Of a stretch of DNA of 32,000 bases, positions 6,993 to 29,729 are shown in pieces (positions within the stretch are counted from its first letter, which is position 1; each line of letters starts with the position of its first letter). Made by a program: the position numbers and the translations under genes. The stretch lies in assembly GCA_965222815.1 (NCBI GenBank), contig CBDCUS010000013.1, forward strand, positions 1,837,302 to 1,869,301, in the 5' to 3' direction. This stretch comes from Candidatus Scalinduaceae bacterium (GTDB lineage Bacteria; Planctomycetota; Brocadiia; Brocadiales; Scalinduaceae). Below the pieces are notes generated by a model. That model worked only from the letters and a program-made list of their open reading frames with translations, had not been told where the DNA came from and did not search any database.

Positions 6993-7207
6993 CGGTTGAA
7001 CGAAAACTGACCAGATATACCCATTACAAAATGATTTTTGGAATTTCTGGGCAGGAGTTTGCGTGAAATAGGGTTCTGAAAACTAAAAATCAATTTGTGA
7101 TGGGTATTAAAGGCGCGTAGATATTTTGTAACCGGAGCGTACTCAAGTACGTGAGGATTGCGAAATTTCTACAGCAACGCAGTAGGTGGTCAGTTTTCGT
7201 TCAACCG
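6993..7207 (-). repeat. Palindromic TIR element, copy R1 (215 bp, contains nested insertion)
   Basis: Perfect 21-bp terminal inverted repeats CGGTTGAACGAAAACTGACCA (6993-7013 / 7187-7207). The interior 7110-7186 is colinear, as reverse complement, with R2 and R3. It ends 5 nt after the stop of the - strand radical SAM gene. Confidence 0.75.
7017..7107. repeat. Nested small TIR element inside R1
   Basis: ~91 bp bounded by ATACCCATTACAAA / TTTGTGATGGGTAT (13 of 14 complementary). It occupies the position where R2 and R3 have only GTAC. Confidence 0.5.
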
Positions 7208-7212
7208 GTTGG

Positions 7213-8694
7213 TTACATGACATGCAGTTCGCTCACCTTGCGAAAATGGTAACCGTAAATGGCAAGCCTTACCGACAGGGGAAACAGTTTTCTATGATGA
7301 ATAAACGTCCATAACAGAAGATCCCAAAATTGTACACGTTCCTTGCCGATGATTCCAAGATGAAAGAAAGAACGAACCAAGCCTAGGATATGATCTAGCT
7401 CTACTTTAACCTTAATCTTCGGTGCCTTGTACTCTCTCAAGAATGTTTTTACTCGCTGGTAGTAGTTTTCGGGAGAATAGATGTGTCTTAAGATACTCTT
7501 ATAGCCATCTCTGCAGGTATCAATATCCATTTTGTTAGGGATAATGTTTGTAGTTCCATCAATGTTATCACCTGACATCCGCCCAAGCAGACGTCCCTCC
7601 TTCTTTAAACGGTCGTAGAGTTTTGTACCATATGGTGCTTGCAGGAGGCCAATCATGGCCATTACGACACCGCTCTTCTGGATAAAATCAATTTGACGTT
7701 GAAAGATGGAAGGTGTATCGCTGTCAAAACCGACAATGAAACCTGCCTGTACCTGTAAGCCCGCTCGCTGAATCCGTTGTACGTCTTTAACGAGTTCACG
7801 GTTATTATTCTGTTTTTTGCCACACTCAACCAAACTATCTGTATCAGGGGTTTCTATTCCCACAAAAACCGCGTCAAAACCCGCATCGGACATCATCTGC
7901 ATCAGCGGTTCGTCATCAGCTAGATTGATTGAGACCTCTGTATGAAAGGGCAGAGGAACGTGTTCTGCTTGCCACTTAATCAGTGCAGGTAACAGCTCCT
8001 TCTTGAGGGCCCTTTTGTTTCCAATGAGATTGTCATCAACAAAGAAGACTGGGCCACGCCACCCCAGATCATAAAAACTATTTAACTCGTTGATAATTTG
8101 TTCAACAGTTTTTGTGCGTGTTCGTTGTCCAAAGAGGGCAGTTACATCGCAAAATTCACATTGGTAGGGGCAACCCCGCGTATACTGTATACTCAATGAT
8201 GCGTACCGTTTCATATCAATCAGATCCCATTGAGGAGCAGGTGTTTCACGAATGTCAGGATATTGGGTCGTCGTATAAATCCGTTTAGGACAACCATTTT
8301 CCAAGTCTTCCAGAAACCCTGGAAGTGTCAACTCTGCTTCATTGAGGATAAAGTGATCAACGTCCTCAAATTGGTTATGTTCACTCGTAAATAGTGGTCC
8401 TCCGGCAACCACCGTAACACCCGCTTTTTTGCACCTTTCAATTAATTGGCGGGCCGAAGTTCGTTGTATGACCATACTCCCAATAAAGACATAATCCGCC
8501 CATGCAAGATCTTGATCCATAAGCTTCGAAACGTTGACATCAATAAGACGTTTTGACCAACTTGACGGAAGCATTGCAGCAACAGTCAGCAATCCCAATG
8601 GAGGGAAGGAAGCCTTTTTTCGGGTAAACTTGAGGGCGTGTTTGAAACTCCAAAATGTATCGGGAAACTCTGGGTATAGAAATAGTATGTTCAT
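7213..8694 (-). CDS. B12-binding-domain radical SAM protein (DUF4070-type C-terminus)
   Basis: It has an N-terminal cobalamin-binding-like region (ILFLYPEFP...PPLGLLTVAAML), the CxxxCxxC cluster motif in YTRGCPYQCEFCD, and is 493 aa long. Confidence 0.75.
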   Translation of the reverse strand: MNILFLYPEFPDTFWSFKHALKFTRKKASFPPLGLLTVAAMLPSSWSKRLIDVNVSKLMDQDLAWADYVFIGSMVIQRTSARQLIERCKKAGVTVVAGGPLFTSEHNQFEDVDHFILNEAELTLPGFLEDLENGCPKRIYTTTQYPDIRETPAPQWDLIDMKRYASLSIQYTRGCPYQCEFCDVTALFGQRTRTKTVEQIINELNSFYDLGWRGPVFFVDDNLIGNKRALKKELLPALIKWQAEHVPLPFHTEVSINLADDEPLMQMMSDAGFDAVFVGIETPDTDSLVECGKKQNNNRELVKDVQRIQRAGLQVQAGFIVGFDSDTPSIFQRQIDFIQKSGVVMAMIGLLQAPYGTKLYDRLKKEGRLLGRMSGDNIDGTTNIIPNKMDIDTCRDGYKSILRHIYSPENYYQRVKTFLREYKAPKIKVKVELDHILGLVRSFFHLGIIGKERVQFWDLLLWTFIHHRKLFPLSVRLAIYGYHFRKVSELHVM

Positions 8695-9107
8695 TGTTTT
8701 ACTTTCCTCGTTTTACATACACATGCGGGAATTATTACAAAAACAGTGGGAAAAATACACCAAATCAGGTTTCCTTTGCGTTCCTGAAAAATATACTTTG
8801 GTATCCTTATAACATAATTAGCGAACATATAAAAGCGAAAAAATGTCATGGGAAAGGCCCGTTTCGTAAAATACCATTTCAGATGTTTAACGGTTTTTGT
8901 CTATAACTCTCTGACTTAAGATTTGGTCTATCAATTCCAGGAAACACAGTTTAAGTTGACGGTAAGAAAGTTTGTTCTCTCTTTTGTATTACGCATTAGC
9001 CAAATGAAACAAAAGAGTACCTACATCACAGACAGTTCCACAAGTTTTTACTCACGATATCAACCCCAATCCCAATATAATAACCCATCCGCATCAAAGA
9101 TCTAGCT

Positions 9108-9181
9108 TGGTTACCCGGGGAGGACTCGAACCTCCAATGAGAGAATCAAAATCTCTAGTGTTGCCATTACACTACCGGGTA
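9108..9181 (-). tRNA. tRNA-Gln (anticodon UUG), CCA encoded
   Basis: Cloverleaf folded by hand: acceptor TACCCGG/CCGGGTA, D arm GTGT-AATGGCA-ACAC, anticodon arm AGAGA-TTTTGAT-TCTCT, T arm GGAGG-TTCGAGT-CCTCC. 74 nt. Confidence 0.9.
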
Positions 9182-27728: not shown

Positions 27729-28739
27729 ATGTTAATTCTTGGTATAGAAACTTCATGTGACGAAACATCAGCTGCTGTTGTTGAAGATGGTGCACACATC
27801 CTTTCCAATATCGTTGTATCCCAACAAACCTTGCATACACGATTTGGTGGTGTCGTTCCAGAAATTGCATGCCGCGAACATACAAAAGCAATCATATCTG
27901 TAATTGACAATGCCGTAACCCAGGCAAAAACAACAATGGATGAAATTGAAGCTGTCGCGGTAGCAAACACTCCCGGTCTTATCGGTGCTTTGTTGATTGG
28001 ATTAACGTCTGCCAAGACTCTCAGTCTGACCTTAAAGATCCCACTCATAACACTAAGCCACTTGCACGCACATATTTATGCGTGTACACTAGAGCATGGG
28101 CATGTTGAGTATCCTGCCATAAGCCTTGTTGTATCAGGAGGACATACAACGCTGTTTCTCACTGAGAACGAGGTCAAGCACACTCCCATCGGTAAGACTA
28201 TTGATGACGCAGCAGGTGAAGCCTTTGATAAAGTTGGAAAGATTTTGGGTCTGGGTTATCCATCAGGACCAGTGATCGACACTATCGCAAAGAGGGGCAA
28301 CAAACAGGGCGTGGACTTTCCCCGTTCATACCTAGGTAAGGGATCTCTCGATTTTAGTTTCAGTGGCATCAAAACCGCAGTACTGTATCACTGCTCAGGG
28401 CAGGATTCTAAGAGTGGAAAAAGAGAGATAGAATTAAGAGACCAAGAGATAGCGGACATTGCCGCAAGTTTCCAGGAAGCAGTAGTCGACGTTTTAGTTG
28501 ATAAAACTATTTTTGCTGCACTAAAGTTTTCCGTTAGCAGTATACTCTTCGGAGGCGGTGTTGCGGCCAACTCAAGACTACGCGAAAGACTTGGCGAAGC
28601 AGCTAGACAGCACAATATAAGACTTTATAATCCACCAAAGGATTTATGTATCGATAATGCCGCAATGATAGCCGGTTTGGCGCATCATAAATATCTTTCT
28701 AAGGATTTCTCAAGCCTGAATGTGGAGGCAATACCTTAA
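27729..28739 (+). CDS. tsaD: tRNA N6-adenosine threonylcarbamoyltransferase
   Basis: ILGIETSCDETSAAVV start, a conserved His-containing segment (LSHLHAHIYA), SGGHT and GGVAAN motifs. Confidence 0.95.
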   Translation: MLILGIETSCDETSAAVVEDGAHILSNIVVSQQTLHTRFGGVVPEIACREHTKAIISVIDNAVTQAKTTMDEIEAVAVANTPGLIGALLIGLTSAKTLSLTLKIPLITLSHLHAHIYACTLEHGHVEYPAISLVVSGGHTTLFLTENEVKHTPIGKTIDDAAGEAFDKVGKILGLGYPSGPVIDTIAKRGNKQGVDFPRSYLGKGSLDFSFSGIKTAVLYHCSGQDSKSGKREIELRDQEIADIAASFQEAVVDVLVDKTIFAALKFSVSSILFGGGVAANSRLRERLGEAARQHNIRLYNPPKDLCIDNAAMIAGLAHHKYLSKDFSSLNVEAIP

Positions 28740-28855
28740 GCAGAGTAACTGGAACGAGAAAATTTATCTTCCGATTCTGGTTTTATGAATTACAATTAAA
28801 CCATATACATCTCATTACTGTACTTAAAAGTGACTAACTATTTTTAACGCTCCTC

Positions 28856-29605
28856 ATGGACAAAAATCAGATAAAAGAGATTTTAAGAAAAGTAAAAGAG
28901 GGTGATTTAACTATTGCTAAAGCCTTACATGAGTTTAAGGATTTACCGTATAAAGAGCTGGGCTTCGCCAAAGTTGATACCCATCGGGCCATACGGTGTG
29001 GTTTTCCCGAGGTCATTTTGTGTGAAGGTAAAACGCCGGACCAAGTCTTAAACATTACCAAGCAAATTGTAAAAAGTGGGGCAAATTTGCTCGCAACTCG
29101 GGCCAATAGTGAAATGTATAAGAGTGTTTTTGCAAAGTACAAGAGTGCCCGGTATAATGAACTTGCCAAAACAATCGTAATAAAAAACTCACGCTTAAAG
29201 AAAAAAGTGGGATCGATCTTGATTGTTACTGCGGGGACTTCCGATCTCCCGGTCGCTGAAGAGGCAAGAGAGACGGCAGAAATAATGGGAAACAATGTGA
29301 AAGTCCTTTGCGATGTTGGTGTTGCGGGCATTCATCGCCTCCTCATAAACAAAAATGACCTCTTTGATGCTAAAGTAATTATTGTTGTAGCTGGCATGGA
29401 AGGAGCACTTGCCAGTGTTGTGGGGGGAATGGTAGATAAACCAGTCATTGGTGTTCCAACAAGCATAGGTTATGGCGTAAGCTTTGGGGGAGTTTCCGCA
29501 CTATTTGCCATGCTGAATAGCTGTGCCTCAAATGTTACGGTTGTCAATATTGACAATGGTTTCGGAGCTGCTTACGTGGCCACGCTCATCAATAGAACAA
29601 AATAG
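28856..29605 (+). CDS. larB: LarB-type pyridinium-3,5-biscarboxylic acid mononucleotide synthase (PurE-like)
   Basis: AGTSDLPVAEEA, GVAGIHRL, AGMEGALASVVGG, PVIGVPTSIGYG and NIDNGFGAA motifs, in a ~250-aa protein. Confidence 0.7.
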   Translation: MDKNQIKEILRKVKEGDLTIAKALHEFKDLPYKELGFAKVDTHRAIRCGFPEVILCEGKTPDQVLNITKQIVKSGANLLATRANSEMYKSVFAKYKSARYNELAKTIVIKNSRLKKKVGSILIVTAGTSDLPVAEEARETAEIMGNNVKVLCDVGVAGIHRLLINKNDLFDAKVIIVVAGMEGALASVVGGMVDKPVIGVPTSIGYGVSFGGVSALFAMLNSCASNVTVVNIDNGFGAAYVATLINRTK

Positions 29606-29606
29606 A

Positions 29607-29729
29607 GGTTGTACGAAAACTACCCATCTACTGCGTTACTGTAAAAAATTCCGTAATCCTCACGTACGTTAGTACGTTCCAGTTGCGAAATTTTTACGTG
29701 CCTTGTACCTGGGCAGTTTTCGTACAACC
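29607..29729 (+). repeat. Palindromic TIR element, copy R3 (123 bp)
   Basis: TIRs GGTTGTACGAAAACTACCCA / TGGGCAGTTTTCGTACAACC are 19 of 20 complementary. Central hairpin ACGTAC-GTTA-GTACGT. It starts 1 nt after the larB stop. Confidence 0.75.

Follow-up and report, generated by a model that had tools for sequence, protein, structure and literature searches.

A 32,000-nt stretch of the genome of a Scalindua-like anammox bacterium (hereafter the window, C13:1837302-1869301 in G000, a genome of 5.32 Mb in 14 contigs with 40% G+C) carries three repeats, R1, R2 and R3, which are very likely copies of a gene-less mobile element of about 145 bp, a miniature inverted-repeat transposable element (MITE) in an ERIC-like group of long hairpins. 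An earlier note on this DNA had listed the three repeats and a colinear sequence common to them, and we find the copies at the positions it gave and the shared sequence to be real. Its suggestion of a mobile, MITE-like element is backed by terminal inverted repeats, by a 6-bp target duplication and by orthologous sites that are empty in related genomes.

BLAST with the window copies gave hundreds of matches in the genome. A profile built from 87 full-length matches then detected 214 non-overlapping copies, 164 of them full length, so the family extends far beyond the three copies first noticed. In its complete long form of ~145 nt, the element combines a 122-nt end-to-end hairpin with GTG...CAC termini and a repeated 3' terminus, and it contains no open reading frame (ORF). 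The termini, GTGTTTGRACGAAAAG, are bordered by a TAnnTA duplication and are inverted repeats of the form GTG[G/T]TTGAACGAAAAC and its complement; aligning the flanks in register extends the inverted repeat by GT...AC. The terminal inverted repeats described in the earlier note are present at both ends across the family. At least 70 of the 164 copies have, beyond the 3' arm, ACA and GGGTTTCCGTTCAAGCAC, the latter being the second copy of the 3' terminus.

Direct repeats of TAnnTA lie outside both ends of the long form. The flanking 6-mers are identical in 19 of 70 long-form copies, compared to a permutation mean of 1.8 and a maximum of 7, and of the 23 copies in which both flanks are TAnnTA, 16 have the same two middle bases on either side, where 2.7 are expected. 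Among the long-form copies, flanking 8-mers gave no matches. Young copies in Desulfobacter carry perfect 6-bp TAnnTA duplications together with the same 3' module. These findings demonstrate that insertion of the element duplicates a 6-bp TAnnTA target.

Comparison of orthologous loci revealed both filled and empty sites for R2, for R3 and for a copy in the Desulfobacter genome G428. The R2 site is empty in G003, a genome of the same genus, where the conserved spacer past the ORF at 22428-23000 meets the conserved leader of the next gene directly and one related copy of the target sequence is found. For R3, G000 and G001 have the copy in place, while G003 and G002 have an empty site, which was ambiguous on first comparison because the species are only ~80% identical. 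In Desulfobacter, the empty site in G443 reads ...GGTTAAATAGgaac..., and the filled site in G428 reads ...GGT-TAAATA-[element]-TAAATA-Gata..., with upstream flanks that are 82% identical between the two. Here, the native stop codon TAG consists of the last TA of the target plus G, and the first G of the element remakes TAG at the 5' junction. The orthologous empty sites prove insertion, and this includes the window copy R2.

Placement over stop codons and the folded structure

Very often the last or the first two bases of the target are the TA of a gene's stop codon. Since the element begins with G, which makes the 5' junction TA-G, the gene retains its stop codon. To count such placements, we used crude ORF calls, taking the longest open frames with a minimum of 90 codons. 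Of the 164 copies, 80 have the stop of a co-directional ORF no more than 8 nt from their 5' end, and 6 have one equally close to their 3' end. The 5' end supplies stops in all three frames: 36 copies use the TA-G junction, 20 the TGA within GGTTGA and 12 the TAa of the target duplicate. For the null, we took the fraction of intergenic TAnnTA sites touching a stop codon, which is 6.3%, or ~3% per end; the other intergenic TAnnTA sites are ~15 times more numerous than the stop-touching ones. Compared to this null, the 3' end is at chance and the 5' end is more than tenfold enriched. Copies with perfect duplications behave in the same way (stop at the 5' end in 12 of 22, at the 3' end in 2 of 22), and in 9-10 of 11 of them the base past the 3' duplicate is A or G, which is the trace of the native stop codon. 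In the Desulfobacter genome G428, a frame of at least 50 codons is closed at the 5' end in 16 of 20 copies and at the 3' end in 6 of 20.

Only one orientation is enriched at gene ends, that in which the gene's mRNA would carry the strand GGTTGAAC...AATCCTCACGTAC. The earlier note had reported for its three copies that each is co-oriented with its upstream gene and lies just past the stop codon. The co-orientation holds genome-wide, with 94 copies in the orientation of the gene strand and 30 opposite to it, and the three window copies are placed as described: R3 abuts the TAG of the ORF at 28856-29605, R1 begins 6 nt beyond the TAA of the ORF at 7213-8694 and R2 starts 45 nt past the ORF at 22428-23000. 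Within one replichore, the association of orientation with gene strand persists (22:15 and 13:67; Fisher p = 6e-6). The replication strand has a smaller, residual effect that is secondary to gene strand, and we set it aside as the explanation of orientation.

The 122-nt consensus folds into one hairpin of -57.5 kcal/mol (z = -10.8 compared to shuffles, none of which equaled it), in agreement with the earlier proposal that the whole unit forms a single long hairpin. Across the family, 86% of cells pair. In 191 cells, both sides have changed and are still Watson-Crick paired, where independence predicts 57 and controls with slid partner columns give 27-45. The compensatory changes singled out in one stem of the three window copies recur family-wide at pair 39-86 of the 122-nt model, which is TA in 62 copies, CG in 30, AT in 25 and GC in 2, and maintenance of the structure, as the earlier note had argued, is thereby supported by covariation throughout the family. 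Two T.G wobbles, 30-91 and 50-75, persist on the sense strand in >80% of copies, and the 5' arm is slightly more conserved than the 3' arm.

The strong hairpin, the covariation, the one-sided placement at stop codons and the retention of the orthologous copy past the larB-like gene in both G000 and G001 would all fit a non-mobile, functional RNA of the 3' untranslated region (3'-UTR), a terminator or stabilizer kept by vertical descent. We consider this very improbable, and as a sole explanation it is contradicted by the clean empty sites, which stand alongside 6-bp target duplications, and by Desulfobacter copies that are 96-98% identical at unrelated loci. The neighboring genes also argue against it: among the 148 full-length copies outside ORFs, 70 lie between tandem genes and are co-oriented with them and 37 lie between convergent genes, but 21 lie between tandem genes in the opposite orientation and 20 lie between divergent genes. 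The intrinsic terminator that had been suggested earlier does not stand. At least 6 T in the 9 nt past the 3' end are found in only 7 of the 164 copies, leaving 157 without a U tract past the hairpin; the flank logos show no T run, and many copies sit 16-100 nt ahead of the next co-oriented gene, which also counts against termination.

A different alternative is that the family is a MITE without any RNA role, and that its placement marks where insertions are tolerated. Insertion on the TA of a stop codon leaves the protein unchanged, as this alternative would predict, and the sense strand has no G.U excess. On the other hand, either end would be equally able to remake the stop, but enrichment is confined to the 5' end; the 3' end stays at chance level, and TAnnTA sites away from stops are in far greater supply. 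Nor would neutrality account for a hairpin tip that, as described below, is invariant across phyla while the arms covary. We therefore regard a purely neutral element as unlikely, if less so than a purely vertical RNA.

A conserved tip across phyla and the relation to ERIC and sX9

The family occurs in all 4 species of the genus, with ~25 to 430 candidate matches per genome. Neither 24 genomes from three other genera of the same family nor 400 sampled genomes of the phylum yielded it. We then scanned public genomes with a pattern for the hairpin tip, followed by the profile. The pattern found many contigs of Candidatus Scalindua sp. SCAELEC01, which may hold roughly 400 copies, and full-length relatives with the same termini proved abundant in Desulfobacteraceae: G428 has ~115 candidates, G429 has ~135 and 16 of 26 relatives of G428 have matches, with many of the G428 copies being 96-98% identical. 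The whole element is thus common to two phyla of the same anoxic marine habitats, a distribution that points to horizontal spread.

The tip alone reaches much further. The motif AATCCTCAnGTAC-N4-GTACGyTCCGGTT is found inside 100-135-nt hairpins whose arms are lineage-specific and mutually complementary, many of which carry GCGTTG on the 5' side and GCGCCTTG on the 3' side. These hairpins occur in Enterobacteriaceae, Aeromonas, Pseudomonas, Burkholderiales and Nevskiaceae, and also in Rikenellaceae, other Bacteroidales, Clostridia, Legionellales and Syntrophus. Two internal-loop strands and the T.G wobble of the tip are kept from Planctomycetota to Enterobacteria, and the two pairs just below the tip covary across lineages (GC 34, AU 8, UA 4 and CG 3; AU 21, CG 16, GC 6 and UA 3). 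RNAalifold on a cross-phylum MAFFT alignment recovered the tip and these two covarying pairs only, because the variable arms do not align. In one Rikenellaceae metagenome-assembled genome (L072:7808-7875), the conserved tip is tandemly duplicated within a single element. The relative in Escherichia coli is an unannotated hairpin in the ycbX-rlmKL spacer, found in 5122 of 5426 complete genomes, with a per-genome median of 2 places, and the RU-3 of Delihas is a candidate identity for it.

The earlier note did not recognize the element as a named family. This holds only in part: the element belongs to a cross-phylum, tip-sharing group that includes the element behind sX9 and apparently ERIC. On the window, Rfam returned nothing at the gathering score apart from two tRNAs, and on one copy at E up to 10 only chance-level matches appeared. 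A Pseudomonas relative, however, scores 44.2 bits against the Rfam family sX9 (RF02228), for which the cut-off is 44, although the sX9 model gave no match on the G000 copies even at E up to 10. In a member of the tip group, the sX9 consensus corresponds to the apical hairpin CGUAC-loop-GUACG together with CUCCGGUU and the 3' arm, and sX9 begins at the internal loop 5' of CGUAC. sX9 is a Northern-verified, 75-nt Xanthomonas RNA that was described as a single small RNA, unlike the repeated, mobile element seen here (PMC3300014). Since sX9 was verified by Northern blot, at least one member of the tip group is transcribed, and on the strand that we call sense.

ERIC is probably a distant relative of these elements, and not their family. 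The center of ERIC gave 100% matches in all 5426 E. coli genomes at a median of 9 places per genome. In one orientation, the ERIC copy L132 shares three blocks at matching distances, CTGCGTTTGC, TCACTTAC-TTAT-GTAAGCTCC and CGCCTT; in general form, the shared blocks are CTGCGTT(T)GC, the tip TCACnTAC-N4-GTAnGCTCC and CGCCTT. When local alignments were compared to shuffles, ERIC scored z = 6.4 with the E. coli ycbX-rlmKL element, a score that none of 1000 shuffles reached, and z = 4.2 with a Burkholderiales copy, while ERIC in the other orientation gave scores at background. Like the Scalindua family, ERIC is an imperfect palindrome of ~125-127 bp that forms a single long hairpin (copy L132 folds likewise), is intergenic and gene-less and has TA at its junctions. 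ERICs that adjoin stop codons reportedly also have a common orientation, an observation attributed to De Gregorio et al. in 2005.

The differences are nevertheless substantial. The stems below the tip are CCCCAG/CTGGGG in ERIC and AATCC/GGTT in the Scalindua family, and the extra tandem 3' terminus is a feature of the Scalindua family that ERIC lacks. The hosts here are Planctomycetota and Desulfobacterota, as opposed to Enterobacteriaceae and Vibrio for ERIC (IRU, RU-1), which has been placed only in enterobacteria and Vibrio (PMC2267715). ERIC is reported to duplicate TA only (PMC2229807, Table 1), whereas the Scalindua family duplicates the 6 bp TAnnTA.

Similar comparisons apply to the Correia/NEMIS elements of Neisseria and to RUP of pneumococcus, which share with this family a size of 100-160 bp, terminal inverted repeats, a target duplication and hundreds of copies, and which are transcribed with neighboring genes into long stem-loop transcripts (PMC2229807). 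In contrast to the Scalindua family with its 6 bp, RUP and Correia duplicate TA, and partners or host-factor sites have been proposed or are known for them (IS630-Spn1; IHF and RNase III), whereas no partner was found for the Scalindua family. The one-orientation lock to stop codons also sets the Scalindua family apart from both.

Other routes of movement and the copies in the window

The 17 Y1_Tnp matches in the genome raise a different route, in which the family would be a REPIN-like repeat moved as a single-stranded hairpin by a RAYT or an IS200-type Y1 transposase. The hairpin with compensatory changes, as reported for REPINs, and the secondary orientation bias with the replication strand are consistent with such a repeat. 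However, Y1 transposases make no target duplication, whereas a 6-bp duplication is found here; the nearest element lies at least 5 kb from any Y1_Tnp gene, no RAYT-flanking repeats were found and a single hairpin of 122-145 nt is unlike the short REP doublets. We give this route little chance of being correct.

The position of R1, which abuts an integron integrase gene (intI), suggests another possibility, namely that the copies are dispersed attC-like sites that mark former integron cassettes and are recognized in folded form by that integrase. The termini GTTGAAC...GTTCAAC are each one base off the attC cores RYYYAAC...GTTRRRY, the length fits chromosomal attC sites and every copy follows an ORF in a fixed orientation. 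Against these resemblances, the two attC sites of the window integron are dissimilar to the element, and its copies are single, lie beside core genes at ~1 per 25 kb and form no arrays. Recombination at attC does not produce a target duplication, and the same family sits at the stop codons of ordinary genes in Desulfobacteraceae. Of the explanations that we weighed, this one is the least probable.

The coordinates of the window copies, of the repeat nested in R1 and of two features outside the window are collected in Table 1. Model position 1 of R3 falls at 29607, and the G of the TAG that ends the ORF at 28856-29605 is the first of the two extension bases preceding its hairpin. The earlier note had ended R2 at 23170; its actual end is 23189, a 19-nt 3' module having been overlooked. 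R1 is unusually long because an element of another family is nested within it, and its 3' end lies ~8 nt beyond the TAG of the integrase ORF at 5665-6984. The 3' 53 nt of the nested element give ~189 BLAST matches in the genome.

Table 1. Positions of the element copies, associated features and comparison elements
Feature	Location	Strand	Remarks
R1, between two convergent genes	6992..7208	-	profile covers positions 1-97 up to the nested insertion; 3' arm resumes beyond
Nested 94-nt element of a different family, inside R1	7016..7109	-	own terminal inverted repeats ATACCCATCACAAA / TTTGTAATGGGTAT
R2 target-site duplication, 5' copy, TAATTA, 6 bp	23040..23045	.	read from sequence; 6-bp length supported family-wide statistically
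R2, long form, 144 nt	23046..23189	+	hairpin, then ACA, then second copy of the 3' terminus (GGGTTTTCATTCAAGCAC)
R2 target-site duplication, 3' copy, TAATTA, 6 bp	23190..23195	.	read from sequence; single related copy at the G003 empty site
R3, short form	29605..29731	+	122-nt hairpin with 2-nt extensions; profile score 122.6
E. coli relative, ~107-nt unannotated hairpin in the ycbX-rlmKL spacer	L131:2538-2644		40 nt ahead of the rlmKL start
IS630-family insertion sequence, example	G000 C14:613403-614544 (L003)

Two other sequences of the window deserve mention. Directly past the stop of the ORF at 22428-23000 is TAGTTTTCGCGTTGGTC (23001-23017), most of which (23002-23017) the earlier note had taken for a fragment resembling a terminal inverted repeat of R2. 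It is conserved in G001 and G003, both of which lack R2, and it is therefore not part of R2; it is an older feature or remnant. A separate, high-copy repeat of ~115 nt occupies 27616-27730 and has 182 BLAST matches in the genome, of which 88 are near full length. Over this repeat, contig depth rises to ~285-300, compared to ~10 around it, and assemblies break at it. The sequencing runs in which the window was found are evidently DNA, with long contigs of even depth; their contigs break at repeats and give no informative joints. The site in G001 that is orthologous to that of R2 is filled by a related repeat.

Proposed mechanism and what the family means

We propose that a DDE-type transposase acting in trans would move the element, which would form part of the transcript as a hairpin in the 3'-UTR or between cistrons, with its base right at the stop codon. 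The lower stem may be opened by terminating ribosomes, which could couple translation to the processing, stability or decay of the transcript, as has been proposed for ERIC in Yersinia. There, ERIC is transcribed together with its neighboring genes, and how it affects the upstream transcript varies with its orientation (PMC2229807). The one-sided placement could arise from orientation-specific insertion, from orientation-specific retention or from both. The element may have a role at the RNA level, such as in transcript stability or processing.

Several results weigh against this interpretation. In G000, we found no inverted pair of termini that flanks a transposase; the sole inverted pair, 1.4 kb long, flanks an NrfD-like membrane protein. 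Each of the 13 extra terminus sites in Desulfobacter G428 turned out to be a MITE copy or a truncated one, and none is an autonomous element. A resident IS630-family element (1142 bp, 11-12 copies, a 349-aa DDE_3 transposase) was considered as the partner and rejected, since its ends, TACCGGTCGCGAAAAAG..., are unrelated and it duplicates TA only. With regard to an RNA-level role, G.U pairs show no excess over A.C mismatches on the gene-sense strand, and in 135 of the 164 G000 copies it is the complementary strand that folds more stably as RNA, as it is in 72 of 85 cross-phylum copies (L026-L105), which does not favor simple selection for a stable sense-strand RNA hairpin. The counts of placement depend on crude, longest-frame ORF calling. 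As for the kinship with ERIC, its alignment to the Scalindua consensus is marginal at z = 2.1, the likeness being clear only by way of the E. coli ycbX-rlmKL relative, and a cross-phylum sequence profile of the tip group does not find ERIC.

A broader account can be put forward tentatively, and we hold it to be possible, though rather less than an even chance: that the invariant tip is the recognition site of a widely distributed trans-acting machinery, either a mobilizing enzyme or an RNA-processing factor; that the insertion mechanism itself makes the one-orientation placement at stop codons; and that ERIC, sX9 and these elements are one ancient class of stop-codon-homing elements that would serve bacteria as RNA modules at gene ends.

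In this genome, the family contributes ~30 kb of repeats, which break short-read assemblies, and the element provides the actual stop codon of dozens of genes, a point that is relevant to annotators. The movement and the function of ERIC-type repeats have been standing questions since 1990-91. The family described here offers clean material for them, with young, 96-98% identical copies in complete Desulfobacter genomes, exact empty sites and a defined TAnnTA target over stop codons. The 13-to-1 asymmetry of orientation and the conservation of the tip across phyla are also useful in this respect. The mobilizing enzyme, the factor that binds the tip and the effect on the transcript thereby become directly testable.

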